Shown: positions 27,147 through 50,648, counted from the first letter of the stretch. The stretch is 64,000 bases of DNA from an uncultured Acidimicrobiales bacterium (GCA_964390555.1 CAYMJU010000125.1:53940-117939), one strand, 5' to 3'. The notes: generated by a model from the letters alone, not told the origin. A program made the numbers and translations.

Positions 27147-27245
27147 TAGGTGAGTGCTCGAGGTCCGATCGGTCTCGCTCGCCTGCTGGCGCAGGCGACA
27201 AGTACCACTGTCACATTGGATGGCTCGCCTATCGGCTCGCCCTCT
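27147..27245 (+). repeat. Unclassified ~100-nt interspersed element, copy E1
   Basis: 27164-27245 matches the reverse complement of 39851-39932 at 76/82 positions with no gaps (hand alignment). The terminal TAGGTGA is shared. E1 contains the hairpin TCGCCTGC-tggc-GCAGGCGA (27179-27198) and the palindrome CCGATCGG. Confidence 0.85.
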
Positions 27246-27264: not shown

Positions 27265-27278
27265 GTGACCTTGGCCCC
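27265..27278. promoter_or_regulatory. Candidate DevR/DosR-like operator
   Basis: GTGACC-TT-GGCCCC lies 63 nt upstream of the CBS-nirK operon ATG. It matches GGGACC-WW-GGTCCC at 10/12 half-site positions. Confidence 0.35.
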
Positions 27279-27976: not shown

Positions 27977-29382
27977 CCACGACGCTGATCCCGCCCACGC
28001 CTCGAATCGATGAGGCGCCGAACCCCGGGGATGACCGGCAGGTGCGCCTTGAGGGGTGGCTGATCCTCGTCTCGTTGCTCGCGGCGGTGAGCATGATCGG
28101 AGCTATCGTCGCCGCCGGCATCGCCATCGTGCGAACCGACGACGAGCAGCCGGCAGCCGTCGGCACGCCGATGACCGTCGAGGTCACACTCGGCGAGTTC
28201 TTCGTGGAGCCGGCAACGCTCGAGGTCCCAGCCGGGACCGACCTGACCCTCGTGGTCACCAACGATGGGGCGATGCCCCACGACCTGAAGCTCGACGGCG
28301 AGCGCGGTACGGACATGCTCGACCCGGGCCAGACCCAGGAAGTGTCCCTCGGCGTGATCGAGGAGCCCGGCGAGGCCTGGTGCACCGTCCCGGGTCACCG
28401 AGAGGCGGGCATGTCGATGCAGATCACCGTCTCGGGTGATGCGCCCGGTAACGGGCCCCCAGCGCCTGGCTCCGGTGCGGCGTCGATCGATGCCGCCCTC
28501 GAACCCGGGCCGGAGTGGGTTCCGTTCGACCCCGCGCTCGAACCGGCACCCGGCGCCACTGAGCACGAGATCGAGCTGCACGCCTCCGAGGTGGAAGTCG
28601 AGGTGGCTCCCGGCGTGACCCAGCTCATGTGGACGTTCGGGGAACAGGTGCCAGGGCCGGTGCTGCGCGGTCGAGTCGGCGACCTGTTCACCGTCACTCT
28701 CGTCAACGACGGCGAGCTCGGCCACTCGATCGACTTCCACGCGTCGCGGGTCGCGTGGAACGACGAGATGCGCACGATCGAGCCCGGCGAGTCTCTCGTC
28801 TACCAGTTCCGGGCCGAGTACGCGGGCGCGTACATGTACCACTGCGGCACGCCGCCGGCGCTGCACCACATCGGCAACGGGATGTACGGCGCGATCATCA
28901 TCGATCCGCCGAACCTGGCGCCGGTCGACCACGAGTTCGTCGTCGTCCAGAGCGAGCTGTACCTCGGACCCGACGGCGAACCCGGTGACCTCACGAAGAT
29001 GGTCGGCGAGGACTGGGACGCCGTCGTGTTCAACGGTTACTACAACCAGTACCGCTACGCGCCGATCCGGGTGGAGACAGACGAGCGCGTCCGGGTCTGG
29101 GTCGTCGACGCCGGGCCGTCGGAGAACTCGGCGTTCCACATCGTCGGCACCGTGTTCGACACCGTGTACAAGGAAGGCGACTACCTTTTGCGACCCGGCG
29201 AGGGCCAAGGCGGTTCGCAGGTCCTCGACCTCCAGCCCGCGCAGGGCGGATTCGTCGAGTTCAGTTTCGCCGAGGGCGGTCTGTACCCGATGGTCACCCA
29301 CAAGTTCGCCAATGTGGGCAAGGGTGCCCTCGGCCTGTTCCAGGCCGGCGAGGTCCAGTCCGACTCCGGCGCCGAGCACTGA
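27973..29382 (+). CDS. nirK: Copper-containing nitrite reductase (NirK-type two-domain MCO) with N-terminal TM anchor and extra cupredoxin domain
   Basis: 469 aa with an ATGA overlap with the CBS gene. The N-terminal cupredoxin carries H..C..H..M (MPHDLKL...CTVPGHREAGM). The core has HSIDFH (T1/T2 His plus catalytic Asp), YHCGTPPALHHIGNGMYG (His-Cys...His...Met), AFHIVG and THKF. Confidence 0.8.
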   Translation: MTTTLIPPTPRIDEAPNPGDDRQVRLEGWLILVSLLAAVSMIGAIVAAGIAIVRTDDEQPAAVGTPMTVEVTLGEFFVEPATLEVPAGTDLTLVVTNDGAMPHDLKLDGERGTDMLDPGQTQEVSLGVIEEPGEAWCTVPGHREAGMSMQITVSGDAPGNGPPAPGSGAASIDAALEPGPEWVPFDPALEPAPGATEHEIELHASEVEVEVAPGVTQLMWTFGEQVPGPVLRGRVGDLFTVTLVNDGELGHSIDFHASRVAWNDEMRTIEPGESLVYQFRAEYAGAYMYHCGTPPALHHIGNGMYGAIIIDPPNLAPVDHEFVVVQSELYLGPDGEPGDLTKMVGEDWDAVVFNGYYNQYRYAPIRVETDERVRVWVVDAGPSENSAFHIVGTVFDTVYKEGDYLLRPGEGQGGSQVLDLQPAQGGFVEFSFAEGGLYPMVTHKFANVGKGALGLFQAGEVQSDSGAEH

Positions 29383-34623: not shown

Positions 34624-35351
34624 GTTGCCACCCCCTCACGCTCTCGCACCCGCGCCGCGGCGGCGCGCACCGCGGCAGCGTCGTCGGCAGTCGCCGGCCG
34701 CCCCGCGTACCAGACCTCCTCGAGAACCCGGCCAGCACCGTCGACGCAGTCGACCAAGCCAACACCGTCGACGCAGTCGACCAAGCCAACACCGTCATTG
34801 GTGGGTGCTTCGGTGCGCGCCGCGACGGCGGCGGTCACCTCGCGCGGCGTCCAGCCCGGCACGTCGTCGATGACTGCGCCGGCCAACAGTTCCGCGACGA
34901 GCACGCGGTACCACGCCCGAACCGCCGCCCGCCACCGCCCTTCGCTCTCGAAGAGCTCGGCGCGGCGCCGGAGAGCATCGACGTCGGCGGGACGGTCGAC
35001 CGAGATGTCGAGATCGCGGTCGCGGCGACGCCCCCTCGGCGCCCAGTTCTCGATCGCCCGCACGACCAGCCATACCACCACCACGGCGATCCCCGACAGG
35101 ATCAGCCAACCGAGGATCGACGAGCCACCGCTTCCACCACCGCCGCCGCCCACATCGATGTCCGGGAACAGGCCGCCGATCCAGTCGAAGATCCGTTCGA
35201 GCAGCGACGGCGACGGCTCGTCGAAGTCCGAGTCGGCGAGCACCCGACCGGCCAGCTCCTTGATGGATTCCGGATCGCGAGGCGGCTCGGGCGCGGGCAG
35301 ATCGGCCGCGGCTCCACGAGGTGCCGATGTCGTCGATCCCACCGATGTCAT
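34620..35351 (-). CDS. Membrane protein, DUF4129-like C-terminus
   Basis: ORF 34620-35801 trimmed to ATG 35351 (ATGA overlap with the upstream gene). It has a Gly-rich segment, the TM segment ILGWLILSGIAVVVVWLVV, and a C-terminal region RAWYRVLVAELL...PGWTPREV. It contains a 27-bp tandem repeat. Confidence 0.55.
   Translation of the reverse strand: MTSVGSTTSAPRGAAADLPAPEPPRDPESIKELAGRVLADSDFDEPSPSLLERIFDWIGGLFPDIDVGGGGGGSGGSSILGWLILSGIAVVVVWLVVRAIENWAPRGRRRDRDLDISVDRPADVDALRRRAELFESEGRWRAAVRAWYRVLVAELLAGAVIDDVPGWTPREVTAAVAARTEAPTNDGVGLVDCVDGVGLVDCVDGAGRVLEEVWYAGRPATADDAAAVRAAAARVREREGVAT
34736..34796. repeat. 27-bp tandem repeat, 2.3 copies, in frame in the DUF4129-like gene
   Basis: CACCGTCGACGCAGTCGACCAAGCCAA occurs at 34736-34762 and 34763-34789, followed by a 7-nt partial copy. 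It encodes GVGLVDCVD twice. Confidence 0.85.
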
Positions 35352-36208
35352 CGGGGTGCCGGGCCCATCTGCTCTATGACTCGAAGCTCGATGTCGAGAC
35401 CCTCGTGACGGCACCGGAGGTCGAGGTATTGCACGACCGCGCAGCTGGCGACGACAGCCGTCGTCAGAACGCTTACCGCCACCGACACCACCGCGGTCGT
35501 GACCCAACCGGGATCGACACCGGTCGCCACCCCGAACGCCTCGGGCAAGACGGTGAGGCTTCCCTCGATCACGATCGTCACGAGACCGACGAGGATGCAC
35601 GCCCAGAACACTTCGGCACTTCGGCCGCGCACGAGCCTCCACGAGCGCTTCATTGCCGCGATCGGCCCGATCCGCTCGATCGCCAGGGCCGGCGCGGTCA
35701 CCGAGTACCGGGTCATGGCGTACAGCGAGCCGATTCCGCACGTCACCAAGCCCGCGGCTTCGACGAGGTGGACGAGGAGCCAGGCCAGCGCCACCGCCCA
35801 CGAGAGACGGCCAAGCTCGACCATCGTCGCGCCGAACCGCGGTCGACGGTCCTCGTGCCAGCCCACGACCAGACGACCGAGGGCGGCGGCGGTCAGCGGC
35901 AGGACGAGGCTGCCGGCGGTGAGCGACCAGACCACCGAGGCCGTGGTGCGCTGGTCACCACCACCGGCTCCCGATGCACCCCAGATCGACTCGATCACCC
36001 CGTCGAAGCCTGCGGCGAGCAGATCACGGTTGAGCCAGGCCGCCACCAGCTCGACGGGCACGACGATCGCCGCGGTGACCGCGAGCACGATCGGGTCGGA
36101 CTTCACCAGATCGAACCCCGCGTCGATCACCTCGACCGGGCTGCGAGGTCGCACCGTCACCCTCGGCCGACGTGGGGAGCTGCTCGCCGCCATCATGCTG
36201 GCGCCCAT
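35348..36208 (-). CDS. Hypothetical multi-pass membrane protein (first gene of the MoxR operon)
   Basis: 286-aa ORF with about 6 hydrophobic segments. It is translationally coupled to the next gene. Confidence 0.55.
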   Translation of the reverse strand: MGASMMAASSSPRRPRVTVRPRSPVEVIDAGFDLVKSDPIVLAVTAAIVVPVELVAAWLNRDLLAAGFDGVIESIWGASGAGGGDQRTTASVVWSLTAGSLVLPLTAAALGRLVVGWHEDRRPRFGATMVELGRLSWAVALAWLLVHLVEAAGLVTCGIGSLYAMTRYSVTAPALAIERIGPIAAMKRSWRLVRGRSAEVFWACILVGLVTIVIEGSLTVLPEAFGVATGVDPGWVTTAVVSVAVSVLTTAVVASCAVVQYLDLRCRHEGLDIELRVIEQMGPAPR

Positions 36209-36281
36209 TCTGGATCATCAGCGACCGCCGGTTGTGATCACGGGGCCCGCGCGACCCGGAATCGCTCGGTGCCGGCGGCGT

Positions 36282-37262
36282 TCATGTGCGCGTCTCCAAG
36301 CACGGGTGGGCGGTCAGATGGTCGAGTAGCTCGCTCAGGCTGGCCTCCGCGACGCACACGACCGAGTCCGCGGCGCCGTAGTACATGCGCAAGGTGTCTC
36401 CGTCGTCGTCGACCACCCAGCCGCACGGAAACACCACGTCGGGGACGTCGCCGGACCGCTCATAGGTGGCGTGGGGCCCGAACACCCATTCGTTGCCCCG
36501 AGCCAGGACGGTCGTCGGGTGATCCCGGTCCAGGAGCGCCAGGCCGACCCGGTAGAGGGACCCCGAAGCAGTGGTGCGCACGCCGTGATACGCGATGAGC
36601 CACCCTCGATCGGTCGGCAATGGAGGCGGCCCCAGGCCGACCTTGTTGGCGTCCCACCAGCCCCCGCGACGGGCGGCGAGGAGGACCTGACTGTCGCCCC
36701 AATGACGCAGGTCGGGGCTGAACGAGATCCACATGTGCGCGCCGAGGCCCACCATCGCCGGCGCGGGCCGGTGGATGAGCGCGTAGCGACCGTCGAAGGT
36801 GACCGGGAACAGCGCGGCATCCTTGTCCTCGGGAGGCTGGAGAACACCATGCCGCTCGAAGGTGACGAAGTCACGCGTGGTCGCGCGGCAGACGAGAGGC
36901 CCGCCCTGCGAGAACCCGGTGTACACGACGTGGTAGAGCTCGCCGATCCGGGTGATGCGAGGATCCTCGATTCCCCAGTGTTCCTCGTATCGATCGAGAT
37001 CGGGGATAAGCCCGGCGTCGAGATCGATCTTCCAGCCGGTCAACCCGTCGGGGCTCGTTGCGACGGCAAACCGGGACAGGCCTGTGCGGTCCTCGATGCG
37101 GACCAGCAGCAACGTCGTGTCGCCGATCTGCACCGCTCCCGGATTGAACACCGCGTTGGTCATGATCGGGATGTCGTGCGCCGTGAGGATCGGGTTCCCG
37201 CTGTAGCGGCGGAACATCTCGCGCGGGTCACATCGAAGCATCGAATCCTCCGACTCGAGCAT
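36282..37262 (-). CDS. GH130-family glycoside phosphorylase/hydrolase-like protein
   Basis: 326 aa. NPILT...FNPGAV, WGIEDPRITRIG, YHGV and LRMYYGAAD match the GH130 beta-propeller pattern. Confidence 0.8.
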   Translation of the reverse strand: MLESEDSMLRCDPREMFRRYSGNPILTAHDIPIMTNAVFNPGAVQIGDTTLLLVRIEDRTGLSRFAVATSPDGLTGWKIDLDAGLIPDLDRYEEHWGIEDPRITRIGELYHVVYTGFSQGGPLVCRATTRDFVTFERHGVLQPPEDKDAALFPVTFDGRYALIHRPAPAMVGLGAHMWISFSPDLRHWGDSQVLLAARRGGWWDANKVGLGPPPLPTDRGWLIAYHGVRTTASGSLYRVGLALLDRDHPTTVLARGNEWVFGPHATYERSGDVPDVVFPCGWVVDDDGDTLRMYYGAADSVVCVAEASLSELLDHLTAHPCLETRT

Positions 37263-37268
37263 CGACGC

Positions 37269-38426
37269 TCATGAGGCCAACCGGTCCACGCCCACTGGCC
37301 GACGGTCGGCCGCCCGCTCGAGAAGACCCGAGTAGCGGTGGCCGACGTTCGACCAGTCGAGTTCGCCGGCCTGTCGACGGGCCGCCCGCTGCATGGCGAC
37401 CGATGCCGCCGGATCGGTGAGCACCCGTCCGAGGGCGAGGGCCATGGCCTCGGGATCGCGATGGTCCACGACGAGACCGCTTCCTGCTGAGAGCATCTCG
37501 ATGGCGTGAGGGAACGCGGTGGCGACGACCGGCTTGCCACTGGCGAGCGCTTCCACGAGGACACCGGACGTCACCTGATCGACAGACTCGTACGGCAGGA
37601 GTACCACATCGACAGATCGGACCAAAGCGCGAAGCGATTCCCAGTCGCGGTACGAGTCGTCGAGCGTGAGAGCATCGGCGACACCGTGCGATCGTGCGAG
37701 GTCGGACAGGCTGCTCCGATACTGCTCTCCATGAGCGGCGCGAACCCGGGGGTGCGTCTGCCCCGCAACGATGTAACGAGCATCGACGCCAAACCGCCGG
37801 AGCGACGCGAGGGCGCCGATCGCCGTCTCGATTCCCTTCCCAGGGCCGATCAACCCCCACGTCAGAATCGTCGGCCGAACGCCCGCAGGCGAGATGTCGG
37901 CGCCGACGTTGAGCGTCGCGCCGTGTGGCACCAACTCGACCTTCCCCGGATCAACGGCATGGGAGCGAAGCAGTCGCGACCGCGCGGTGCCACTCTGCGT
38001 CACGACGACCGCCGAGCGGTCGCAGAGGGTCTCGACGATCGTCTGCTGCCGCGCCGATGGCGACCGGAGGACAGTGTGTAGAACGGTGATCAGCGGAACG
38101 GTCGACCGCTCAGCGAGCTCGACGACATCGATCCCATCGGGCCCACCGAAGATGCCGAACTCGTGCTGCACGATGGCCACGTCGAATCGGTCCAGTCGGC
38201 GGGCGACACGATCGCCCGCATGCCGGTCGTCGATTGCCCAGACCATGTCGATCTCGGCTCGGTCCGAGATCGACGGATCGTCAGGGGCGACGATCCGAAC
38301 GACGCTGTGCCGCCAGCCGGGCCGATCGCCCATGAGCGCCGTACGAAGGTTCTCGCTGAACGTCGCCAATCCACACCGAGTCGGCGGATACGTACCGACC
38401 ATGACCGTCGAGAGGGTCATCGACAT
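37269..38426 (-). CDS. GT4-family (GT-B) glycosyltransferase
   Basis: ORF trimmed to ATG 38426 (AGGAG 6 nt upstream). MSMTLSTVMVGTYPPTRCGLATF is a typical GT4 N-terminus, and the C-terminal E-x7-E region is VLLPYESVDQVTSGVLVEALASGKPVV. Confidence 0.8.
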   Translation of the reverse strand: MSMTLSTVMVGTYPPTRCGLATFSENLRTALMGDRPGWRHSVVRIVAPDDPSISDRAEIDMVWAIDDRHAGDRVARRLDRFDVAIVQHEFGIFGGPDGIDVVELAERSTVPLITVLHTVLRSPSARQQTIVETLCDRSAVVVTQSGTARSRLLRSHAVDPGKVELVPHGATLNVGADISPAGVRPTILTWGLIGPGKGIETAIGALASLRRFGVDARYIVAGQTHPRVRAAHGEQYRSSLSDLARSHGVADALTLDDSYRDWESLRALVRSVDVVLLPYESVDQVTSGVLVEALASGKPVVATAFPHAIEMLSAGSGLVVDHRDPEAMALALGRVLTDPAASVAMQRAARRQAGELDWSNVGHRYSGLLERAADRRPVGVDRLAS

Positions 38427-38505
38427 AACTGCTCCTGTGTTGTCCGGACCGCGGTTCGCCCGCATCGCCCACCCCGAGCCTCACGTGACGCCCATCCGGC
38501 CACCA

Positions 38506-38519
38506 GGGACCTTCGGCCT
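38506..38519. promoter_or_regulatory. Candidate DevR/DosR-like operator
   Basis: GGGACC-TT-CGGCCT lies 80-93 nt upstream of the GT4 ATG. The 15-mer CAGGGACCTTCGGCC (38503-38517) is identical to 51577-51591. Confidence 0.4.
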
Positions 38520-38553: not shown

Positions 38554-38964
38554 TCACGAAGCAGGGGAGTGAGCCGTTCTGATCGCGTGGAGCAGCGGGG
38601 CCAGGCGTACCTGTTTGGGCAGGCAGGCGAACGCCCCGGCAGCCAGGCATCGCTCGGCGACCGCGTCATCGAGCAAGCCCGAGTGCACGATGTACGCCGT
38701 CAGTGGCAGTTCGGCTCGAAGCGCGTGGATCAGGTCCGCTCCCGTTCCGTCGGGCAGCCGGTAGTCGATGAGCATCACCGCTGGTGACAATGGGGGCGCC
38801 GCGATCTGGGCTGCGGCGATCGAGCCGGCCCAGCCGACGACATCGACATCGAGCTCGGCGCTCAGAACATCGACGAGCCCCTCGCGGGCCCGCAAGTCGT
38901 CCTCGACGATGAACAGCGAACGTACCGGTCGCGGTTCGAGGTCCGGCCGACCCGCAGCGTCCAT
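38554..38964 (-). CDS. Stand-alone response-regulator receiver (REC) domain protein
   Basis: 136 aa with the acidic pocket FIVEDD, the phospho-acceptor context VMLIDYRLPDGTG, and a conserved K in ACLPK. No output domain is present. The gene begins 5 nt after the devR-like stop. Confidence 0.75.
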   Translation of the reverse strand: MDAAGRPDLEPRPVRSLFIVEDDLRAREGLVDVLSAELDVDVVGWAGSIAAAQIAAPPLSPAVMLIDYRLPDGTGADLIHALRAELPLTAYIVHSGLLDDAVAERCLAAGAFACLPKQVRLAPLLHAIRTAHSPAS

Positions 38965-38969: not shown

Positions 38970-39680
38970 TCAGAGTGCTCGGCGGCGACGCTCGGCCATC
39001 CGCGCCGCCGCCGCGGCGACCTCGGTCCGGCGGTCCATGCTCAGCTTGTCGAGCATGTTCGACACGTAGTTCTTGATCGTCTTCTCGGCTAGGTACATGG
39101 TCTCCGCGATCTGGCGATTCGACCGACCTTCTCCGATCAACTCGAAGATCCGCCGTTCCTGATCGGTCAGTCGAGCCAGCAACTGATCGTCCTCGTCGCC
39201 ACGGCTGGCGCGGGCTCGCGCTTGTTTGACCGTCGCGGCGTCGAGCGTCGGCCGGCCGGCCGCTATCGAGCGGAGCGACGACACGATCTCGTTGCTGCGC
39301 AACTCCTTCAACGCGTAGCCCTGGGCACCGGCTTCGGCCGCCGCGACCACCGCCTCGTCGTCGGCGAACGACGTGAGGATCAACACGGCGAGGTCGGGAT
39401 GACGCTCTCGCAACCGGCGGCAGGCATCGACACCGTTACCGTCGGGCAGTCGAACGTCGAGCACGGCGATGTCGACCTGACCGGGCCCGATCCGGGCCAG
39501 GGTCTGTTCAACCGTGCCCGCCTCGCCGACCACCCGGAACTCGCCAGTCGACTCGAGGAGCTCGCGCAGACCCTGGCGCACGATCTCGTGGTCGTCGAGC
39601 AGGAACACGCGCACCGGGTCTCGATCCTCGGCGTCGCCGGTGTCCTCCATTGCGGCCATTTCAGCGCTCGTCATGCCCAT
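38970..39680 (-). CDS. devR: NarL/LuxR-family response regulator, DevR/DosR orthologue
   Basis: ORF 38970-39731 trimmed to ATG 39680. VRVFLLDDHEIVRQGL, DIAVLDVRLPDGNG and LTDQERRIFELIGEGRSNRQIAETMYLAEKTIKNYVSNMLDKLSMDRRTE closely track M. tuberculosis DevR as I recall it. Confidence 0.85.
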   Translation of the reverse strand: MGMTSAEMAAMEDTGDAEDRDPVRVFLLDDHEIVRQGLRELLESTGEFRVVGEAGTVEQTLARIGPGQVDIAVLDVRLPDGNGVDACRRLRERHPDLAVLILTSFADDEAVVAAAEAGAQGYALKELRSNEIVSSLRSIAAGRPTLDAATVKQARARASRGDEDDQLLARLTDQERRIFELIGEGRSNRQIAETMYLAEKTIKNYVSNMLDKLSMDRRTEVAAAAARMAERRRRAL

Positions 39681-39715: not shown

Positions 39716-39729
39716 GGGCCCAAAGTCCC
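39716..39729. promoter_or_regulatory. Candidate DevR/DosR-like operator in the devR / ATPase divergent region
   Basis: GGGCCC-AA-AGTCCC lies about 43 nt upstream of the devR-like ATG (39680) and about 110 nt upstream of the ATPase ATG (39833). Confidence 0.45.
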
Positions 39730-39832
39730 ACGGATCATCCCGGAGTTTGTTGCCCGGGTGACCATCGGCCCTGGCCCGGACTGGTCGCCCGACCCACGAT
39801 GAGCACCACCACGATGCAGAGGGGATGCGCGG

Positions 39833-42406
39833 ATGAACGATCCGGGGCTCAGAGGGCGAGCCGATAGGCGAGCCCTCCAATGTGACAGTGGCATTTCTCG
39901 ACTGCGCCAGCAGGCGAGCGAAACCGATCGGAAGCTGAAACAGTCACCTAGCGATCCGGGGCTCAGCGCACTGGAGGCCGCGAGGCGACTGGCCGACGAC
40001 GGACCGAACGCTGTCCCGCTGCCCTCGCCACCGCGGCTCCCGTTACAGATCCTCCACGCCGTCCGCCAGCCATTGTCCCTCGTGCTTGTCGCCGCGGGCC
40101 TGGCCACGGCACTCGTCCTCGACGAGCTCGTCGAGGGCCTGGCCATCGGTGGCGTGGTGGTACTGAACGTCGCCGTTGAGGTGGTGCTCCAGCGGCGAGC
40201 AACATCGGCCCTGGCTGCGCTCGCCGAGCTCACCAGCCCGAAGGCGACCGTCCGGCGCGCCGGTGTGGCGCGGGTCATCGACGCCGCCGATCTCGTCCGA
40301 GGCGATGTCGTCGAGCTGGCCGCGGGCGATCGGGCACCCGCCGACATCGAGCTCACAGAAGGCTCGCCCCTCGTCGTCGACGAGTCGATCCTGTCGGGCG
40401 AGTCGGCGCCGGTGACACGTCATGCCGATGGCGATTCTGAAGAAGCGCTCGTCCGGGGCGGAACGATGGTGCACCAGGGATCCGCCTCGGGTGTCGTGGT
40501 CGCCACCGGAGCCGCGACCGCGATCGGCAGCATCGCCCGATCCATCCAGACCGAAACCACACCGCCGCTCGTCGACGAGCTCCGCTCGATCGCGGTGGCC
40601 CTCAGCGTGGGAGCCATCGCGTTGGGAACGGTGCTCGGTCTACTCGTCGCCCGACGGGGAGACGCCGACGCGGGCGACGCTCTGCTGGCCGTCGTCGCCC
40701 TGTCGGTCGCCGCCATACCCGAGGGCCTCCCAACCACGGTGATCGCTGCCCTGGCCCTCGGCGCACGAGCGATGGCTCGACGCGGCGCCATCGTGCAGAA
40801 CCTGGCCGCGATCGACGCTCTCGGCGCCACTTCCGTGCTGTGCACCGACAAGACGGGGACGATCACGACGGGGCGACTCCGACTCGATGGAGTCCATCCG
40901 CTCGATGGTCGAGGTGACGACCTCTGGACGGCCATTGCCCACTGCCATGACGCCCACGACGGGCTCGGCGATCCGATAGACGTGCTGGTCGCGGCCGCGG
41001 CGGCCGATCGAGGGGTACCGGCAGGCGTCCGGCTGAACAGCCGCCCCTTCGACGGGTTGGCGCGGTCGATGGCCGTCGTGACGCTCGACTCGGACGCGAC
41101 GCCGGTCCTCATCGTCAAGGGCGCGCCCGAAGGAGTGTTGACGCGCTGTGACCCCGGACCGGACGCGGTGCGCCTCGCCGAAATGGCCGAGGGATTGGCC
41201 GCGGCCGGTCAACGAGTGATCGCCTACGCCAGCCGAGCCAGCGACGACCTCGACGCGGCGGGCCTGCGGCCGCTGGGCGTCGTCTCGTTCAGCGAGGAGA
41301 ACAGGCCCACGGCGGCGCGCACAGTGCAAGGGTTTCACGACGCGGGCATCCGCGTCGTCATGGCGACCGGTGACAGCCCGATCACCGCCACGGCGGTCTG
41401 CCGCCGTGTGGGACTTCCGGTGAGAACTGTCTATTCGGGCCTCGACGACCACCATCACGGCGCCGATCTGCGAGACGCCGATCTGGTCGCGAGGGTCGAT
41501 CCCCTCACCAAGTTGGCCCTGATCGACGCCCACCGCTCCGCGGGTCACGTCGTCGCCATGATCGGCGACGGGGTCAACGACGCTCCGGCCCTCAAGCGCG
41601 CTGACGTGGGTGTGGCGGTGAGCGGTTCGGGGACCGACGTGGCGCGGGCCGCGGCCGACGTCGTCTTGACCGATGGCGATCTCGAGACGCTGCTCGTCGG
41701 CATCCGAGAAGGACGGCGCATCTACCGGAACCTCAAGGTGGCGACGGGCTACCTGTTGTCGGGCAACGTCAGCGAGGTGCTGGTGTTCGTAGGGGCACTG
41801 ATCGTGTTCCCCGACGTCGCGGTGCCGCTCCTGCCGCTTCAGATCCTGTGGCTGAACCTGATCACCGACGGCCTGCCGGCGATCGTGCTCGGGATCGACG
41901 ACCCGCCGCACGAGCCTCTGCACTCGCGCCCGCGCGGGCCAGGTGATGAGATCCTGGCTCGACCGGCGCAGCTCCGGATCGCGGGACGAGCGACCGTCAT
42001 CACCGCGATCGTGCTGGCCTCGACGTGGCTCGTGACCGACGGTTCGGCTGAAGGATCGATCAGGACCCAGCTGCTGTTGTCGCTCGGCTCGGCCCATATG
42101 TTGCTCGCGCTGATCGCCCGATCCGAGCGCTGGACGTTCGAACGCGGCTGGGCGCGTTACAAGCCCGTGTTGCTCGCCATCTCCGGTTCGGCCGTCGTGC
42201 ACGCGCTCGCGTTCGTCACGCCCCCCGTGCGCTCGTTGCTGGACCTCGAACCCGTGCCCGCCGATGGGTGGTTGGCCGCCGTCGGTGGCCTCGTCGTCTT
42301 GCTGGTCGCGGTCGATGGCGCCCGCGCCCTCGACCGTCTTCGATCGAACCGCGGCGCTCGGTCAGGGCCAGACCTGGGTGCCGGCCAGACCGCGGCAGGC
42401 CGCTAA
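39833..42406 (+). CDS. P-type cation-transporting ATPase (P2, CtpF-like), N-terminus interrupted in frame by repeat element E2
   Basis: 857 aa with CTDKTGTITTG, MATGDSP and GDGVNDAPALKRADVG. Codons 7-44 are the inserted element plus the duplicated DPGL codons. Confidence 0.9.
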   Translation: MNDPGLRGRADRRALQCDSGISRLRQQASETDRKLKQSPSDPGLSALEAARRLADDGPNAVPLPSPPRLPLQILHAVRQPLSLVLVAAGLATALVLDELVEGLAIGGVVVLNVAVEVVLQRRATSALAALAELTSPKATVRRAGVARVIDAADLVRGDVVELAAGDRAPADIELTEGSPLVVDESILSGESAPVTRHADGDSEEALVRGGTMVHQGSASGVVVATGAATAIGSIARSIQTETTPPLVDELRSIAVALSVGAIALGTVLGLLVARRGDADAGDALLAVVALSVAAIPEGLPTTVIAALALGARAMARRGAIVQNLAAIDALGATSVLCTDKTGTITTGRLRLDGVHPLDGRGDDLWTAIAHCHDAHDGLGDPIDVLVAAAAADRGVPAGVRLNSRPFDGLARSMAVVTLDSDATPVLIVKGAPEGVLTRCDPGPDAVRLAEMAEGLAAAGQRVIAYASRASDDLDAAGLRPLGVVSFSEENRPTAARTVQGFHDAGIRVVMATGDSPITATAVCRRVGLPVRTVYSGLDDHHHGADLRDADLVARVDPLTKLALIDAHRSAGHVVAMIGDGVNDAPALKRADVGVAVSGSGTDVARAAADVVLTDGDLETLLVGIREGRRIYRNLKVATGYLLSGNVSEVLVFVGALIVFPDVAVPLLPLQILWLNLITDGLPAIVLGIDDPPHEPLHSRPRGPGDEILARPAQLRIAGRATVITAIVLASTWLVTDGSAEGSIRTQLLLSLGSAHMLLALIARSERWTFERGWARYKPVLLAISGSAVVHALAFVTPPVRSLLDLEPVPADGWLAAVGGLVVLLVAVDGARALDRLRSNRGARSGPDLGAGQTAAGR
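39838..39966 (-). mobile_element. Element copy E2 (39851-39950, inverted relative to E1) with flanking perfect 15-bp direct repeats
   Basis: CGATCCGGGGCTCAG occurs at 39838-39852 and 39952-39966, 114 nt apart. The interior is homologous to E1. No transposase lies nearby and I found no terminal inverted repeats. Confidence 0.6.
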
Positions 42407-43264
42407 CGCCTGGTCCAGCGCGCCGACGGCCGCCGATCTCCCGGTGTCGGTGACGAAACGGCATGCCGCTTCGACCTTTGGACCCATCGAACCCGGCGCG
42501 AACGATCGGGATCGCAACTCCTCGACGGTGGCGTCGGACAGCGGCGTCGCCCACTGGTCGTAGACGGCATCGACATCGGTGAGGAGCAGGAGCTTCGACG
42601 CGCCGAGCGCACTGGCAAGCAGCGCCGCGGTGAGATCATTGTCGATCACCGCCTCGACCCCGGACCGAAGGCCACATTCCGACCTGGTGACGGGCACGCC
42701 GCCCCCGCCCCCGCACACCACGACCACGCCGCGATCGAGGAGCAGCCGGATCACCTCGAGCTCCACCACCGACACCGGATCGGGCGATGCGACGACGCGG
42801 CGCCAGCCGTCTCCGTCATGGCCGATCGACCAGCCTCGCTCCCGGGCCAGGCGCTCCGCCTGGTCCTTGTCGAGCATCGCTCCGATCGGCTTCGTCGGGA
42901 TCGCGAATGCGGGGTCGTGAGGTTCGACCTCGACCTGGGTGAGCAGTGTCGCGACGTGACGACCGGAGAGCTGGTTGGAGAGTTCGATCGAGAGCAGGTA
43001 CCCGATCTGACCCTGGGTCTCGGCGTCCAGAACGTCGAGGGGCATCGGCGCGGGGCCGAGCTCGGATTCCTGCGCCAGCAGACCGACCTGGGGGCCGTTC
43101 CCGTGGACGATGGCGAGGTCAGAATGGCGGGCCAGCTCGCTCAGTGCCCGACCGGCCACCCGCACGTTCGCGACCTGGGTTCGGTGGTCGAGTGGCTGAC
43201 CGCGCCGGAGCAGCGCGTTGCCCCCGATGGCGGCGACGACCAGCGGCCGGTTCAGATGGTCCAC
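42362..43264 (-). CDS. arcC: Carbamate kinase
   Basis: 300 aa. VVAAIGGNALLRRGQ, AIVHGNGPQVG and VVVCGGGGGVPV are typical carbamate kinase motifs. Confidence 0.88.
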   Translation of the reverse strand: MDHLNRPLVVAAIGGNALLRRGQPLDHRTQVANVRVAGRALSELARHSDLAIVHGNGPQVGLLAQESELGPAPMPLDVLDAETQGQIGYLLSIELSNQLSGRHVATLLTQVEVEPHDPAFAIPTKPIGAMLDKDQAERLARERGWSIGHDGDGWRRVVASPDPVSVVELEVIRLLLDRGVVVVCGGGGGVPVTRSECGLRSGVEAVIDNDLTAALLASALGASKLLLLTDVDAVYDQWATPLSDATVEELRSRSFAPGSMGPKVEAACRFVTDTGRSAAVGALDQALAACRGLAGTQVWP

Positions 43265-44574
43265 TGCGCGATCAGCGGGCGAAGGACCGAGGACAAGCTC
43301 GGCTCGCCGACCTCGCGAAAGCTGTAGCTCGCGTGGCGGACGGGGGACGAGATGTCGATCAGTCGGCTGAGATCCATCGGCGTGCCGGTGACCACCACGT
43401 CGCAGTCGGTCGCGGCGATCGTCTTGGCCAGATCCTCGAGTTGCTGATCGTCATACCCCATCGCCGGAAGGACCGACTCGATGTGTCGGTACCGCTCGAA
43501 GGTCGCGGCGATCGAGCCGACGGCGTGAGGCCGGGCATCGACGAGAGCGGTCGCGCCCGCTTGCCGGGCGGCGACGGTGCCGGCCCCGAAGCGCATCCCG
43601 CCGTGGGTGATCGTGGGACCGTCCTCGACGACCAGGACCCGCCGCCCGACGAGCGAGGGGCCCGGGCCGAGCGTCACCGGCGACGCGGCCTTCACGATGA
43701 CGGCGTCGGGATTGACCGCCTCGGTGTTGGCGACGACGGTCGCGACCGACTCGAGCGATGCGGTGTCGACCTTGTTGACCACCACGACGTCGGCCATGCG
43801 GACGTTGACCTCGCCCGGGTGATAGGAGACCTCGTCACCCGGACGCAACGGGTCGGCAATCGTGATCATCAGATCGGGCCGGTAGAAGGGGAAGTCGTTG
43901 TTGCCACCGTCCCAGATGATGACGTCGGCCTCGGTCTCGGCGCGGCGCAGGATCGCCTCGTAGTCGACGCCGGCGTACATGATCATCCCGACCCTGACCG
44001 GCTCCTCGTACTCCTCGCGCTCTTCGATCGTCGGGTGCGATGCGTCGATGTCCTCGATCGTGGCGAATCGCTGAACGCGCATGGCCTCGAGGTCGCCGTA
44101 GGGCATCGGATGGCGAACCAACGCCACCCGTAGCCCGGCTTCGATCAGATGCCGGCCGACCCAACGGCTGGTCGGAGACTTGCCACAACCCGTCCTCGTC
44201 GCGCACACGGCGATCACCGGCTTGCTGCTCGGCACCATCGTCGATGCCGGCCCGAGCAGGCGGAAGTCGGCCCCCGCGGCCATGGCGACCGAGGCCTTGT
44301 GCATGACCTCGACGTGGGACAGATCGCTGTACGCGAGCACGACCTCGTCGATCTGTTCCCGGCGGACGAGCGTGGCCAACGTCGCCTCGGGGACGATCGG
44401 GATTCCATCTGGATAGCGCGTTCCGGCCAGAGACGCCGGGTAGCGCCGATCGTCGATACCCGGGATCTGGGCGGCAGTGAAGGCGACGACCCTTGCGTGC
44501 GCGTCGTCACGGTAGACCGTGTTGAAGTCGTGGAAATCGCGCCCTCCGGCACCCATGATCACGATGCGTCGCAT
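43252..44574 (-). CDS. P-loop protein of the family often auto-annotated as cyclic 2,3-diphosphoglycerate synthetase / GTPase
   Basis: 440 aa. MRRIVIMGAGGRDFHDFNTVYRDD is followed by the Walker A-like CATRTGCGKSPTS and by VVVVNKVD. Its 3' end overlaps the arcC start by 13 nt. The family assignment is from memory of annotation patterns. Confidence 0.55.
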   Translation of the reverse strand: MRRIVIMGAGGRDFHDFNTVYRDDAHARVVAFTAAQIPGIDDRRYPASLAGTRYPDGIPIVPEATLATLVRREQIDEVVLAYSDLSHVEVMHKASVAMAAGADFRLLGPASTMVPSSKPVIAVCATRTGCGKSPTSRWVGRHLIEAGLRVALVRHPMPYGDLEAMRVQRFATIEDIDASHPTIEEREEYEEPVRVGMIMYAGVDYEAILRRAETEADVIIWDGGNNDFPFYRPDLMITIADPLRPGDEVSYHPGEVNVRMADVVVVNKVDTASLESVATVVANTEAVNPDAVIVKAASPVTLGPGPSLVGRRVLVVEDGPTITHGGMRFGAGTVAARQAGATALVDARPHAVGSIAATFERYRHIESVLPAMGYDDQQLEDLAKTIAATDCDVVVTGTPMDLSRLIDISSPVRHASYSFREVGEPSLSSVLRPLIAQWTI

Positions 44575-44625
44575 GTCGGCTCCTGAATCTCAGATGAGCG
44601 TCCCGCTCGCGAGGTCGGCGCGACA

Positions 44626-44639
44626 GGGCCGAAGGTCAT
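44626..44639. promoter_or_regulatory. Candidate DevR/DosR-like operator
   Basis: GGGCCG-AA-GGTCAT (reverse complement ATGACC-TT-CGGCCC) shares 13 nt, GACCTTCGGCCCT, with the box at 51580. It lies 52 nt upstream of ATG 44574. Confidence 0.35.
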
Positions 44640-44768
44640 TCGACGAGTCGCAACGTCGATGGAAGGTCCATGCGGACCAGCCGGCGCACCATCAGCAGAG
44701 GCGCCAGCCCGACGGCGGCGGGACTTTGGACCATGTGACCCGGGCTACGGTGGCGATCGAATTGACCC

Positions 44769-45915: not shown

Positions 45916-46713
45916 GTGACAACCAACCGATCAACCCGACCCCACCGTCGCGGACCACTCGTGGCCGTCGCGATTGTCGTTCTCGTGGCCAGTGCGTGTG
46001 GCACTGACGACGACTCCGCATCGACGACGTCGAGTGCCCCGGTCAATCCCGCGGATACTTCCACCACGCTCGAGTCGACCACCACGCTCGAGTCGACCAC
46101 GACAGCCGAGTCCACGACGACGGCTGAGTCGACCACGACCGTGACGCCGGGCCCGGTGCAACCCGCAGTGTGGCCCGCGGCGGGCGTGGTCTTCGATTCT
46201 CCCGAGTCGGCGGCCGAAGACTTCGTCGCCCAGGTTCTCGGTGTGCCACCAGTCCTCGGCGAGTTCGTACTGGGCGACTCGCGAAGTGGCGAGATCGAGG
46301 TCATCTTCCCCGGGGAGGGCGAAGGGGCCACGCGCATCGTGCGAGCCACGCTCTTCCTTCGCCAGCTCGGTCCCGACGACGGGTGGTTCGTACTCGGCGC
46401 GGCGAGCGACGGAGCGTCGATCGACTCGCCCCAGGCTGGGACCACCGTCGGTGCGGGAGCCTTGACCGTATCCGGACTAGCACGCGGGTTCGAGGCACTT
46501 GTCGTCGTCGAAGCCTTTGTCGCCGGCGACGCTGTCCGTCTTCTCCAAAAGATCGCGAGTGGCGGGTCGTTCGAAACCCCCGAACCATTCTCGGCCGAGG
46601 TCGATCTGTCGGGCGTCGCTCCTGGTGAGACGGTCCTGCTGCTCGTGCGCGGCGGAGTGGGACTCGAGACCGACCCCGGCGACTTCACCGCCATCCCGGT
46701 CGTGATCGGGTGA
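45916..46713 (+). CDS. Secreted lipoprotein with S/T-rich repeat linker and Ig-like C-terminal domain
   Basis: GTG start. The signal peptide plus lipobox is LVAVAIVVLVASAC, followed by GTDDD, an STTT(L/A)E repeat region and a beta-rich domain (Gmad2-like by impression). Confidence 0.6.
   Translation: MTTNRSTRPHRRGPLVAVAIVVLVASACGTDDDSASTTSSAPVNPADTSTTLESTTTLESTTTAESTTTAESTTTVTPGPVQPAVWPAAGVVFDSPESAAEDFVAQVLGVPPVLGEFVLGDSRSGEIEVIFPGEGEGATRIVRATLFLRQLGPDDGWFVLGAASDGASIDSPQAGTTVGAGALTVSGLARGFEALVVVEAFVAGDAVRLLQKIASGGSFETPEPFSAEVDLSGVAPGETVLLLVRGGVGLETDPGDFTAIPVVIG
46060..46140. repeat. 18-bp imperfect tandem repeat, about 4.5 copies, in frame in the lipoprotein linker
   Basis: The units are TCCACCACGCTCGAGTCG, ACCACCACGCTCGAGTCG, ACCACGACAGCCGAGTCC and ACGACGACGGCTGAGTCG, then ACCACGACC. 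They encode (S/T)TT(L/A)ES repeats. Confidence 0.8.
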
Positions 46714-46893: not shown

Positions 46894-48348
46894 TCAGAAT
46901 CCGCCGAGGGCCATCAGTTGCTCCGACACCAGCGCGGCGAGATCGCCGGGCGCCAGCGCAGTGTCGAGGACCCGAGCTTGCGGCCATGGGTCGCGTCCGG
47001 CGGCCAGGTGATCGACCAGATCGGGCGTGGCGTCAGACGGATTCCAGGGACTCGCGAGCCGGCGAGCGATGCGTTCGCGGGCCACGGTCGCATCGAGCCG
47101 ACACTCGATCTCGTGAAGCCAACCGCCGTGGCGCCAGGCCAGGGCCCGCGCCCGCTCGCGTTGTGACTCGCAACTCCACGTCGCGTCCAGAATCACACTC
47201 TCGCCCCGATCGAGCAGCACCTCGGCCTGGCGGATCATCTCGTCGTAAACTGCAGCGGTCATCTCGGTGGTGTAGATCCCCTCTCCCGGGGCGGCGAAGG
47301 CGTGGGTGTCGTGACCGAGACCGGCCAGGTCCTTTCGCACCTCATCGGACCGCACGGCCGACCAGCCGAGCCGCTCGCCGAGATCCAGCGCAAGGGTCGA
47401 CTTGCCGACACCGGCGCCTCCGCCCACGAGAACCAGGTGCACCTGACCCCGGGCCAGGTGATGGGCGCACAACTCGTGGTAGCGCTGGGCCAGCGACGCG
47501 GACTCCGCATCGCCCTGCTCGTAGCGAAGGCACGCGACCTTGGCCCGGACGTGAGCCCGATAGGCGACGTAGTGGTGGGCGAGCGAGCTCGGATGGTGCT
47601 CATAGGAGTGCTGCTGGTACGCGGCCATGAGTACCCGCGCCGAAGCCGGGCCGGACAGCCGATGCAGGTCCATGGCCAAGAAGGCCACGTCGCACAGCAC
47701 GTCGGCGATCCGCAAGTCGTCCCGAAAGGCCAGGCAGTCGAGGATCCGGGGGCCGTCATCGAGGCAGAAGATGTCATCGGCCAGCAAGTCACCGTGACCG
47801 TCGCGGACGAATCCCTCGGCAATGCGGTGGTCGAACAGTGCTTCGCGTCCGGCGAGGAACGCCCGGGCGAGCGCCGCTACCTGATCGATCGCAGCCCCAG
47901 CGATCACCCGGTCGCGGAACCGCTCGAGCGTGCGCAGGTTGTCCTCCCAATTTGCCGCCACCGCGTCGCGGGTCGCCGACGACGGATCGCTCGCCGGAGG
48001 TTGACCGGCGTGGAACGCGGCCACTCGCCGGCCGACCGCACGGACGGCGTCGGCGAACTCCGGCTTGTCGACCAGCGCGCTCAAACGGCGGTCGGCGGGA
48101 AGCCGCTTCATGACGATGAGCTGGTCGACCAACTCGCCGTTCTCGAAGACGTCGCCCAGACCCAGGTACACATCGGGCGCCATTCGCCGGTTGAGTTCGA
48201 GCTCGCGCTTCGCCGCGTGCAGGCGGACGTCACGATCGCGGTGGTCGAGGAACCCCATGTCGACGGGCTTGAGCAGCTTGTACGCCCGATCGGGCGTGAA
48301 GAAGACCCGAGAGATGTGGGTCTCGACGGCGTCGACCGAACTGGTCAT
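46894..48348 (-). CDS. Bifunctional aminoglycoside-phosphotransferase-like kinase / P-loop ATPase (Rv2004c-like)
   Basis: 484 aa. The N-terminal APH-like fold has [20 protein letters not shown] and [11 protein letters not shown]. The C-terminal P-loop is [14 protein letters not shown]. The start overlaps the ppsA stop. Confidence 0.75.
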
Positions 48349-50648
48349 CGCCGGGCGGCCTCCACCAACACCCGCTGCTCGGCCGCCGCTATCACCCGGC
48401 GAGTGGCCAGCGCGGCATCAGGGTCGACCGACACCGACCCGATGCCGAAACGCACCAGGTGCTCGGCGAACTCGGGGCGGTTCGACGGCGCCTGACCGCA
48501 CAGCGACGAGCTGAGCCCGTGGTCGCGGCACTGAGCGATGATCTGACCGATCGCCCACAACACTGCGGCGTCGGCTTCGTCGAACAACTCCGCGCAGATC
48601 TCAGAATCGCGGTCGACGCCAAGCATCAGTTGGGTGAGATCGTTCGATCCGATCGACACCCCGTCGATGCCTAGCGCGGCATAGTCGCCGATGCGATGGA
48701 CCACCGACGGCACCTCGGCCATGACCCAACGGTGCATTCCCCGATGGTTCCCGAGCGGGCTCTCATCCACCGCATCGAGGCACGCCTCGAGCTCCCAGGC
48801 CGTGCGCACGAACGGGATCATGAGGTGCAAGTTCGGGTGCTCGTCTCGCGCTCGGGCAAGGGCGCGCAGCTCCATGGCGAACGTCTCGGGCTCGCGGATG
48901 TAGCGGTAGCAGCCCCGGTACCCGATCATCGGGTTGGCCTCGATCGGCTCGAACGCGTCGCCGCCGGCGAGCTCGCGGAACTCGTTGCTGCGGAAGTCGC
49001 TTGTGCGGTACACGACCGGGCGCGGGGCGAATGCGGCGCAGATCGTCTTGAGGTCCCCGACCATGCTCGCCACGAACTCGTCAGACCGACCGTCAGCGAG
49101 AAGCGCCTTCGGGTGGCGGCCACCGAGCGCCGATGTCAACATCAGTTCCCCCCGCAGCAGGCCCACACCATCGACGGGGAGAGCCGCGGCGGCGACGGCA
49201 CCATCGGCCAGGGCGAGGTTGACGTAGAGGCGTGTCGCCAGCGGGGTGTACTCCGAAGCCGACGCCGAGACCGACTGCGTCGTCGTTGTGACAACGCTCG
49301 GCGTCGCGGCAACCGGAGCGCCCACTCGTCCCCGGTACACCACGCCCGCGGCGGCGTCGACCGTCACGAGGTCGCCGTCGCGCAGCACCTGGGTCGCCCG
49401 GCGGGTGCCGACGAGTCCCGCGATTCCCAGCTCGCGGCTCACGATCGCCGCGTGGCACGTCGATCCGCCCGCGTCGGTGATCAGGCCACCGACGCGTCGC
49501 AACACCGGCATCCAGTCTGGCGACGTCTTCTCGGCGACCAGGATCTCGCCATCGTTGAGACGCGCCCCGTCCTTGGGCGATCTGAGGATCCGTACCACCC
49601 CCGACCGTGAGGCCCGGCCGATCCCAAGTCCGTGCAGCACCGCCTCTGGGGCGCCGGTCGCCGGCTCGGCGAGCGTCGTGATCGGCCTCGACTGGAGGAC
49701 GAACAACTCGCTCCGCGCGTAGGCCCATTCGATATCTTGCGGGGAGCCGTAGTGATCCTCGATCCGGCGACCGACCCGAGCGACAGTGCCGATCTCGTCG
49801 TCGGACAGCACCCGCCGATCGGCATCAGCTGGGTCGAGCTCGACCCGCTCGTCACCACCTTCGACGCCTCGGCGCAGGAGGAACGCCTGATGCCCGACGC
49901 GAAGCTCGCGCATCGCCATCGTGGAACGCTCGACCCGGTAGGTGTCGGGTTCGACGGCGCCGGACACGACGACCTCACCGAGTCCGAAGGCGGCTTCGAT
50001 AACCAGGTGAGCGCGAGCGGGGTCACCGGGCTCGACGGTGAACATCACACCCGAGCGATCCGAGTCGACCATCTGCTGGACCACTACCGCGATCGCCGGC
50101 TCCGCGGCCAACGCCCGTTCGGCGCGGTATGCGACCGAGCGGTCGCCCCAGAGCGAAACCCAGCATCGGCGAACCCGGTCGAGCAACGCATCGGTACCCG
50201 TCACGTTGGTGAACGTCTCGTTCATTCCGGCAAACGAGGTCTCGGCGGTGTCTTCGGCGGTCGCCGAGGAGCGGACAGCGACCGACAGCCGGTCGCCGAT
50301 CTCGCGGTAGTGCCCTTCGATCGCCTGGGCTGCTGGCCCGGGGATGGTCACCGCACCGACGATCTCTCGGGCGCGGGCCGCCAGGCGAGCCAACGCGTCG
50401 GGGTCAGCGTGGATCGCGTCCTGGGTGATCTGTTGAAGTTCGGCCCGCGCGCCCGCGGCGACGATCGCGTCGATGTACGCGGCGGCGGTCACGACGAACC
50501 CGGGTGGCACGGGGAAACCGGCCGAGACGAGCTCGCCGAGGTTCGCACCCTTGCCTCCTGCCGATGCCACGTCGGCGAGCGTGATGCGGTCGAGTCCGAC
50601 CACGGCCTCGATCCGGAGCTCGGGGTCGGCGGTGCTTGCAACGCTCAT
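48345..50648 (-). CDS. ppsA: Phosphoenolpyruvate synthase (pyruvate, water dikinase)
   Basis: ORF trimmed to ATG 50648. The N-domain has [10 protein letters not shown], the swivel phospho-His motif is [18 protein letters not shown], and the C-terminal PEP-utilizing TIM domain has [10 protein letters not shown]. Confidence 0.88.

Follow-up and report, generated by a model that had tools for sequence, protein, structure and literature searches.

Putative Dev boxes in the promoter regions of an Acidimicrobiales gene island encoding a DevR/DosR/OsdR-type response regulator

Introduction

The 64,000-nucleotide (nt) stretch of DNA analyzed here, referred to as the window, belongs to an uncultured Acidimicrobiales bacterium from a freshwater sediment metagenome (GCA_964390555.1 CAYMJU010000125.1:53940-117939), and positions are counted from its first letter. 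A preliminary description of the window had pointed out, by eye, eight intergenic palindromes resembling GGGACC-WW-GGTCCC in the promoter regions of a gene island in its right-hand part. The question raised by this locus is whether the palindromes are operators and, if so, which protein reads them and to what effect. We conclude that they are very probably "Dev boxes", operators read by the DevR/DosR/OsdR-type response regulator that the island itself encodes. On this reading, the island is a hypoxia/dormancy regulon of an ordinary and already known kind, and its operator motif has already been published for Streptomyces.

Results

A matrix built from the eight palindromes would have been circular, and so two external matrices, neither of which contains window sequence, were used instead. 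The first was derived from the 26 Streptomyces coelicolor OsdR sites in Table 1 of Urem et al. 2016 (PMC5069765), and the second from the best palindromes preceding DevR-like genes in 18 non-Streptomyces actinobacterial genomes (consensus caaGGGACCTAGGTCCCttg). With the OsdR matrix, a score of at least 9 was reached by 7 intergenic matches in 3.8 kilobases (kb) and by 5 coding matches in 60 kb, one of the latter being the site at 50684, directly upstream of ppsA. With the 18-genome matrix, 9 intergenic and 4 coding matches scored at least 10 (binomial p 5.5e-9, with 6% of the window being intergenic). When the intergenic DNA was shuffled with its dinucleotides preserved, the mean was 0.18 matches, and none of 2000 shuffles reached nine. 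All of the intergenic matches fall within 27-61 kb and none adjoins the housekeeping genes on the left; at a score of at least 8, the 1-27 kb part (1.7 kb of it intergenic) gave 0 intergenic matches and the 27-64 kb part (2.7 kb intergenic) gave 11. These counts answer the question of intergenic enrichment that the preliminary description had left open. Enrichment of single 5- to 7-mers in intergenic over coding DNA was dominated by stop-codon words and had low power, the intergenic sequence amounting to 3.6 kb; GGACCT and GACCTT came no higher than about tenth. Restriction-site avoidance was rejected as an explanation, GGWCC being common in coding DNA (168 copies).

Every one of the eight 14-mers is present at the start coordinate previously given, and the 18-genome matrix, which scores them between 10.4 and 21.3, added sites at 39758 and 50684 and weaker ones at 59538 and 44720. 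GTGACC-TT-GGCCCC (27265-27278; score 13.3 with the 18-genome matrix, to which the scores below also refer unless stated) lies between an iscS-like gene on the minus strand and the CBS-DUF1918/NirK-like operon on the plus strand, and GGGACC-TT-CGGCCT (38506-38519; 14.0) is the box for the GT4-GH130 operon (minus). The divergent region between the regulator gene (minus) and P-type ATPase 1 (plus) holds the autoregulatory box GGGCCC-AA-AGTCCC (39716-39729; 16.1) and the newly found GTGACC-AT-CGGCCC (39758-39771; 11.2, and 12.1 with the OsdR matrix), which are 42 base pairs (bp) apart, one proximal to each promoter. GGGCCG-AA-GGTCAT (44626-44639; 11.4) belongs to the operon of a cyclic 2,3-diphosphoglycerate synthetase-like (cDPGS-like) protein and an amino-acid kinase (minus), and the weak new box GGGACT-TT-GGACCA (44720-44733; 8.6) to a DUF2157 gene (plus). 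Another new box, GGGACC-AA-AGGCCC (50684-50697; 14.5, and 11.7 with the OsdR matrix), lies in the last codons of the FNT gene and serves ppsA (minus). Between FNT (minus) and acs (plus) are GGGACC-TT-CGGCCC (51580-51593; 16.6, and 17.3 with the OsdR matrix) and, 33 bp from it, GGGACC-AT-CGTCCG (51613-51626; 15.9). The weak new box GAGCCT-TT-GGTCCC (59538-59551; 9.5) is assigned to P-type ATPase 2 (minus). The divergent region between the PAS kinase (minus) and the M50-CBS protease (plus) contains GGGGCC-AA-GGTCCG (60768-60781; 10.4), and the best box of all, AGGACC-TA-GGTCCC (60815-60828; 21.3), a perfect 12-bp palindrome, lies upstream of the M50-CBS/PNPOx genes. The genes that had previously been assigned to these promoters were upheld throughout (CBS plus NirK-like, GT4 plus GH130, response regulator/P-type ATPase, cDPGS-like plus amino-acid kinase, FNT and PpsA, acetate-CoA ligase plus pyruvate dehydrogenase, and the M50-CBS protease).

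The 6+2+6 geometry of the DosR box, proposed earlier for the eight sites, holds for all twelve. The DevR half-site of Mycobacterium tuberculosis is GGGACT, and mutagenesis showed DevR binding to require G5 and C7 of the 18-bp motif (PMC3177182); read from the sequence, core position 3 is G and core position 5 is C in all 24 half-sites of the 12 boxes. The sixth half-site position was correctly described as C rather than T, but C or G is found there in most non-mycobacterial relatives and is not peculiar to this genome. An identical 15-mer, CAGGGACCTTCGGCC, had been reported at two promoters; it does occur at both, at 38504-38518 and 51578-51592 and not at 38503-38517 and 51577-51591. Likewise, a reverse-strand copy of GACCTTCGGCCCT exists, as the complement of 44625-44637 rather than of 44626-44638. 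Because the sequences flanking the two 15-mers are unrelated, we regard the copies as near-consensus sites and not as a duplicated promoter. They are identical because both promoters carry an optimal site. Box 51580 (AGGGACCTTCGGCCCT, with one flanking base on each side) has as its 14-bp core GGGACCTTCGGCCC, which is printed as the OsdR site of SCO0167, SCO0216 and SCO5979 in a site list backed by electrophoretic mobility shift assays, with AGGGCCGATCGGCCCT as the OsdR consensus (PMC5069765). The same 14-mer recurs in related loci (L005, L013, L044 and L065).

The boxes stand at a fixed distance from other promoter elements. When the 14-bp core is numbered 0-13 and counting continues toward the gene, the hexamer NANNNT begins at index 37 in 7 of 24 oriented window contexts and at every other index in no more than two. 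The -10-like hexamers found at index 37-42 are GAGGCT (GT4), GACAGT (regulator), CACGAT (ATPase 1), GACGCT (cDPGS-like), GACGAT (ppsA), CAGCGT (FNT) and GACGGT (ATPase 2). A strict TANNNT was not found at the expected distance; the -10 elements here are NANNNT, mostly GACNNT, and become visible once the first base is freed. Start codons occupy index 49 or 50 in six genes, namely the regulator (ATG 39680, index 49), ppsA (ATG 50648, index 49), DUF2157 (ATG 44769, index 49), ATPase 2 (GTG 59501, index 50), acs (ATG 51630) and FNT (GTG 51543). From these offsets, the box centre would be 42.5-43.5 nt before the predicted transcription start, which suggests that the mRNAs of the six genes are leaderless. 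For example, the centre of box 50684 is 42.5 nt before the ppsA ATG, and that of box 51580 is 43.5 nt from both the FNT GTG on the minus strand and the acs ATG on the plus strand. The remaining box-linked genes have short leaders with a Shine-Dalgarno sequence, such as AGGAG in the cDPGS-like leader; the predicted transcription starts are near 38470 for GT4 and near 39807 for ATPase 1.

The same geometry was seen in 80 related loci. Among the 228 oriented contexts of their intergenic boxes, NANNNT began at index 37 in 53 and at index 38 in 22, against a background of 5.2 ± 3.3, and ATG/GTG peaked at 49-50. A second NANNNT peak at index 59-60 appears to correspond to a box one tandem step farther upstream. 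In M. tuberculosis, the centres of the primary box and of the poorly conserved secondary box are at -42.5 and -63.5, respectively (PMC3177182); the hspX box is centred around -43.5, and DosR contacts sigma region 4 and the alpha subunit (PMC13486717). With -10 elements and start codons as proxies, the offsets in the window and in the related loci appear to reproduce the M. tuberculosis box placement.

The candidate reader of the boxes is encoded within the island at 38970-39680 (minus). Domain search and alignment with DevR identify its product as a DevR/DosR/OsdR-like, NarL-family response regulator with REC and GerE domains, the best solved relative of which is M. tuberculosis DevR (3c3w, E 4e-59; runner-up, 3e-34). 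Conserved with respect to 3c3w are the phosphoacceptor D54 together with T82, K104, Q153, N167, K179, T180, K182, N183, Y184, R196, R197 and T198. In DevR, K179, K182 and N183 read the GGGACT half-site, and Q153, N167, T180, Y184, R196 and R197 make backbone contacts (PMC13486717). Database relatives of the regulator, which are at most 66% identical among 5.8 billion proteins, are annotated as DevR, and its nearest named relatives come from Acidimicrobiia genome bins. Promoter geometry indicates that translation probably begins at ATG 39680, giving a protein of 236 amino acids. The longest open reading frame, which is also the public gene call (P0001, 253 amino acids, GTG 39731), takes the gene's own operator into the reading frame. 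Directly behind the regulator gene and co-transcribed with it is a gene for a single-domain receiver protein (38554-38964, minus), the phosphoacceptor pocket of which is complete (acidic pocket, acceptor Asp, Ser and Lys); this protein could take up phosphate as a sink or form a side branch of the pathway.

When 5-mer dyads were counted without bias in the 350 nt preceding each of 80 DevR-like genes, GGGCC-N4-GGCCC (30/80), GGCCG-N2-CGGCC (29/80) and AGGGC-N6-GCCCT (26/80) came out on top, with shuffles giving less than one. Nearly all Streptomyces and Kitasatospora loci have GGGCCG-NN-CGGCCC, whereas variants of GGGACC-WW-GGTCCC precede the regulator gene in Nocardioides, Marmoricola, Marinactinospora, Ilumatobacter and several uncultured genomes, as they do in the window. 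Across the 80 loci, the 18-genome matrix at a score of at least 12 gave 114 intergenic matches, 18 of which are training sites, and 23 coding matches, a 21-fold difference in density. Residue V21 of the regulator is preceded by the autoregulatory box 39716 at a distance of about 107 nt, compared with 98-119 nt in the nearest relatives. The island's DevR-like protein had been suggested as the binder of the palindromes, and its homology to DevR, its retained DNA-reading residues and the occurrence of the same palindrome upstream of the 80 DevR-like genes all argue for this assignment. Many osdR/devR promoters also carry abutting boxes with centres 14 bp apart (for example, GGGCCGACCGGCCC followed directly by TGGCCGTTCGGCCC), an arrangement unlike the 21-bp tandem of M. 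tuberculosis; such pairs occur upstream of the DevR-like gene in loci L035, L041, L052, L059, L061, L064-L066, L007, L011, L013 and L017.

The only histidine kinase of the island, a 341-residue protein encoded at 59586-60611 (minus), is the candidate cognate sensor. By domain and structure comparison, it consists of one FixL-like haem-PAS domain, HisKA_3 and a DevS/DosT-like HATPase. Its ATP-binding domain is closest to those of DosT and DevS (E 3e-15) and its PAS domain to the haem-PAS domains of FixL and DosP (E 1e-15 to 1e-9). The histidine aligned to the proximal haem ligand of FixL is shared without exception by the window kinase and by six full-length relatives, the latter all adjoining devR, often together with a NirK-like gene, in Ilumatobacter-type loci (L038, L042, L043, L048, L053 and L055). 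The kinases of most other relatives are 520-590 amino acids long, and their alignment is limited to the catalytic core. The location beside devR in other genomes supports the candidate pairing of kinase and regulator. A literature search found no description of a haem-PAS kinase paired with a DevR-type regulator. The likeness to the rhizobial FixL-FixJ system concerns the kinase alone, in that the PAS domain aligns to the FixL haem-PAS (E 1e-15) and the proximal histidine is conserved; the window kinase differs from FixL in its transmitter, which is a HisKA_3 of the DevS/DosT type, in its predicted DevR-type partner and in the Dev-box motif that goes with it, and its binding of haem is putative.

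The window thus displays the half-site sequence, the intergenic enrichment, the nearby DevR-type regulator, the autoregulatory box and, by proxy, the -42.5 placement by which Dev boxes are recognized. Compared with the M. tuberculosis DevR/DosR system, it shares the inverted GGGAC half-sites about a two-base A/T centre, the essential G and C throughout, the DNA-reading residues, the box centre at about -42.5 and the autoregulatory box. The regulon content overlaps as well when domain architectures are compared, including a cation ATPase, an M50-CBS protease, a CBS protein, a PNPOx protein and nitrite/nitrate transport; published DosR/OsdR regulons include an M50 protease (Rv2625c), Rv1997, a CBS protein (Rv2626c), Rv2004c, PNPOx and PPDK. 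Unlike in M. tuberculosis, half-site position 6 is mostly C or G and not T, a second tandem box at 21 bp is not recognizable in the window, the kinase has a FixL-like PAS domain in place of the two GAF domains of DevS/DosT, many targets appear to be leaderless, and the annotated window genes include no universal stress protein, hspX or nitroreductase.

The resemblance to S. coelicolor OsdR (SCO0204) lies in the 6+2+6 palindrome, in the clustering of sites in one island around the regulator gene, and in the targets of the PPDK/PpsA and PNPOx families (PMC5069765). Streptomyces and Kitasatospora differ in preferring GGGCCG half-sites, often with a G/C centre, whereas the window prefers GGGACC with a strict A/T centre, as do Nocardioides, Marmoricola, Ilumatobacter and other non-Streptomyces relatives. 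None of the 12 window boxes has GGGCCG on both sides, as in the Streptomyces subtype, and boxes 38506, 39758, 44626 and 51580 are GGGACC/GGGCCG hybrids or near-hybrids. The S. coelicolor kinase OsdK is also different, being a long protein that aligns to the window kinase in the catalytic core only.

Discussion

We propose that the boxes are class II activator sites of a phosphorylated dimer of the DevR-like protein. A sensor kinase, probably the FixL-like haem-PAS kinase encoded at 59586-60611, would autophosphorylate upon a fall in O2 or a change in NO, CO or redox state and pass the phosphate to the conserved aspartate of the regulator. The regulator would then dimerize, and its two recognition helices, with the equivalents of K179, K182 and N183, would read the GGGAC half-sites flanking the A/T centre. 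At most promoters, the box, located about 42.5 nt upstream of the start, would take the place of a -35 element, and the dimer would recruit RNA polymerase, as M. tuberculosis DosR has been shown to do. This would turn on the operon of the regulator itself and about ten transcription units, with functions in nitrite handling (FNT, NirK-like), acetate/pyruvate metabolism (Acs, pyruvate dehydrogenase, PpsA) and cation transport by two ATPases, along with the M50-CBS protease, CBS and PNPOx proteins, and sugar and solute enzymes.

Several observations weigh against this proposal. The kinase gene is 20 kb from the regulator gene and encodes a PAS domain where DosS/DosT have GAF domains, so that the tandem-GAF sensor typical of the DosRST system is missing from the island. 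For the 12 boxes, no second box within the top 1% of scores was found at ±19-23 bp, save a very weak one beside 59538, and the box pairs of the window are spaced by 33, 42 and 47 bp and not by about 21 bp; the missing tandem may reflect only the poor conservation of secondary boxes. Boxes 27265, 51613, 60768 and 60815 are without the canonical -10 offset. On neither side of box 27265 is there a -10 at that offset, and the ATG of the CBS gene follows the box at 69.5 nt; at box 60815 a -10-like GACGAT is 5 nt closer than at the other boxes. Box 51613, which ends 4 nt before the acs ATG, spans -17 to -4 of the predicted leaderless acs promoter and overlaps the predicted -10, a position that fits repression better than activation. 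The specificity of the boxes refers to the 64-kb window that was scanned, and the RNA evidence described below consists of assembled metatranscriptome contigs, without direction or ends, that show in situ expression only.

One could envision, from the last-named boxes, that the DevR-like protein does bind but that some boxes repress or act as roadblocks, chiefly 51613 together with the non-canonical 27265 and 60768, where no -10 lies at the activating offset. Repression by this family is not reported in the cited OsdR and DevR/DosR studies, however, and upstream sites that are in phase are usually cooperative (PMC3177182); box 51613 precedes the FNT-proximal box by 33 bp, or about three turns of the helix. 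Its role may be to assist the FNT promoter as a cooperative upstream site in helical phase, or to hold back acs. We consider it rather unlikely that repression is at work at such boxes, and activation by the DevR-like protein remains the preferred reading.

Alternatively, the boxes might be genuine operators of a different regulator from another part of the genome, for instance a further NarL/LuxR-family or a Crp/Fnr-type protein, with the DevR-like protein binding to something else. The visible portion of the genome is 64 kb, the S. coelicolor island also encodes Crp-like regulators (PMC5069765), and the kinase gene does not adjoin the regulator gene. Yet the motif matches the DevR/OsdR half-site base for base and is not of the Crp/Fnr type, dozens of genomes have it in front of a DevR homologue, K179, K182 and N183 are retained in the local regulator, and no further DNA-binding regulator is present among the annotated island genes. 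We think that this alternative is very improbable. As for the notion that the palindromes are by-products of chance or composition in GC-rich DNA, short hairpins or restriction-related sequences, the eye search was indeed confined to intergenic DNA and single k-mer tests are weak with so little of it, but the idea is refuted by the independent matrices, the shuffles and the geometry in related loci, given that fixed -10 and start-codon offsets cannot be chance, that a 6-base stem with a 2-base loop is not stable, and that GGWCC shows no avoidance in coding DNA.

If the boxes are DevR operators, a regulator, an operator and a promoter layout can be assigned to about ten transcription units of an uncultured sediment/ice actinobacterium, and its low-oxygen response would be readable from sequence. 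The DevR operator and its -42.5 placement would be conserved well past mycobacteria and Streptomyces, to Acidimicrobiia-type genomes, and DevR regulons would become predictable in metagenomes. The working principle of the system is understood no differently than before, the exchange of the kinase and the in-frame repeat described below being the only mildly surprising parts. It is conceivable, at somewhat less than an even chance, that the DevR regulon of this bacterium has a FixL-type haem-PAS kinase as its driver, in place of the GAF kinases DosS/DosT, that it works for the most part through leaderless promoters, and that it has a cargo not known from mycobacteria or Streptomyces (a cDPGS-like enzyme with a carbamate-kinase-family partner, GT4/GH130, NirK and Acs-pyruvate dehydrogenase). 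If this is true, then the sensor module of the dormancy switch was exchanged during actinobacterial evolution while the operator and promoter geometry stayed fixed.

Gene content and other features of the window

Genes were called from third-position G+C and named by Pfam and NCBIfam; the G+C content of the window is 67-73%. The first 27 kb are occupied by housekeeping genes (ilvC, ilvB, ilvD, gatCAB, PASTA kinase, ligA, mnmA and iscS-like). The island is interrupted at 29.4-35.3 kb by a MoxR/DUF58 block, which carries no boxes. On the plus strand, the candidate targets are the operon of the CBS-DUF1918 protein and the NirK-like copper protein (27341-29382), P-type cation ATPase 1, with a 114-nt in-frame insertion at codon 7 (39833-42406), the operon of acetate-CoA ligase, pyruvate dehydrogenase-type E1 alpha, E1 beta and E2, and a small carrier protein (51630-56859), and the operon of the M50 protease with a CBS pair and a PNPOx-family protein (60875-62516). 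On the minus strand are the operon of the GT4 glycosyltransferase, the GH130 phosphorylase and a gene of unknown function (35348-38426), the operon of the cDPGS-like and amino-acid (carbamate)-kinase-family proteins (42362-44574), the FNT channel gene followed, behind box 50684, by genes for a phosphoenolpyruvate synthase/PPDK-family enzyme and an AAA_33 protein (46894-51543), and P-type cation ATPase 2 (56835-59501).

Acetate-CoA ligase passes its NCBIfam equivalog cutoff. The NirK-like protein (27973-29382, plus) scores 158 bits against the equivalog cutoff of 296 for copper nitrite reductase and has an extra N-terminal cupredoxin domain, and for both reasons its activity is uncertain; in Ilumatobacter-type loci, boxes beside devR are likewise followed by NirK-like genes. 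The sole solved relative of the 440-residue cDPGS-like protein (43252-44574, minus) is cyclic 2,3-diphosphoglycerate synthetase (9sxb, E 1.9e-9), and its gene is followed by that of the amino-acid (carbamate)-kinase-family protein (42362-43264, minus). The AAA_33 protein (46894-48348, minus), encoded behind ppsA, shows a faint similarity to 2-phosphoglycerate kinase (E 3e-6, far below the cutoff). Together, the cDPGS-like, carbamate-kinase-family and AAA_33 genes could hint at the synthesis of a solute or phosphate store like cyclic 2,3-diphosphoglycerate in an actinobacterium.

For many island genes (window 35000-64000), contigs with 99-100% identity were found in two ice and one sediment metatranscriptomes, which implies that the organism or a near-identical relative is active in cold habitats. 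The genes covered are those for the regulator, the receiver, GT4, GH130, the cDPGS-like protein, PpsA, AAA_33, FNT, the M50-CBS protease and PNPOx. The contigs over the GT4 and regulator genes end 9-10 nt short of the predicted starts (a contig of run X3 ends at 38461).

The insertion in ATPase 1 contains a repeated element of about 113 nt, present in two copies that are 88% identical, at 27133-27245 (minus) and 39853-39951 (plus). The first lies 20 nt from box 27265 on its minus-strand side, between the box and the iscS-like gene. A 15-nt direct repeat (CGATCCGGGGCTCAG) stands at 39838 and 39952; one of its copies and the plus-strand element together make up a 114-nt in-frame insertion after codon 6, and removal of this insertion in silico restores the canonical N-terminus of ATPase 1, MNDPGLSALEAARRL. 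In the source metagenome, the depth of the repeat is 1000-6500 (summed contig depth), compared with 9-10 for the flanks, and contigs break at the repeat ends. The element is absent from the 80 related loci, and it folds no better than shuffled sequences (z -1.5 and -1.6). Rfam returned nothing in the window at the gathering threshold and nothing around the repeat at E up to 1, and a metagenome scan with a 16-mer of the repeat gave chance matches only, the whole element being found in no locus among the matches listed. Rickettsia palindromic elements insert in-frame into genes, and they may be the closest analogy.

The heptamer TGACAGT has four intergenic copies and no coding ones; two are in the 113-nt repeat, and the other two (23908 and 29385) do not align with it. 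Finally, three tandem 18-nt repeats (CCACCACGCTCGAGTCGA) are located at 46061-46132 (plus) within a gene for a Gmad2-domain protein (45916-46713).

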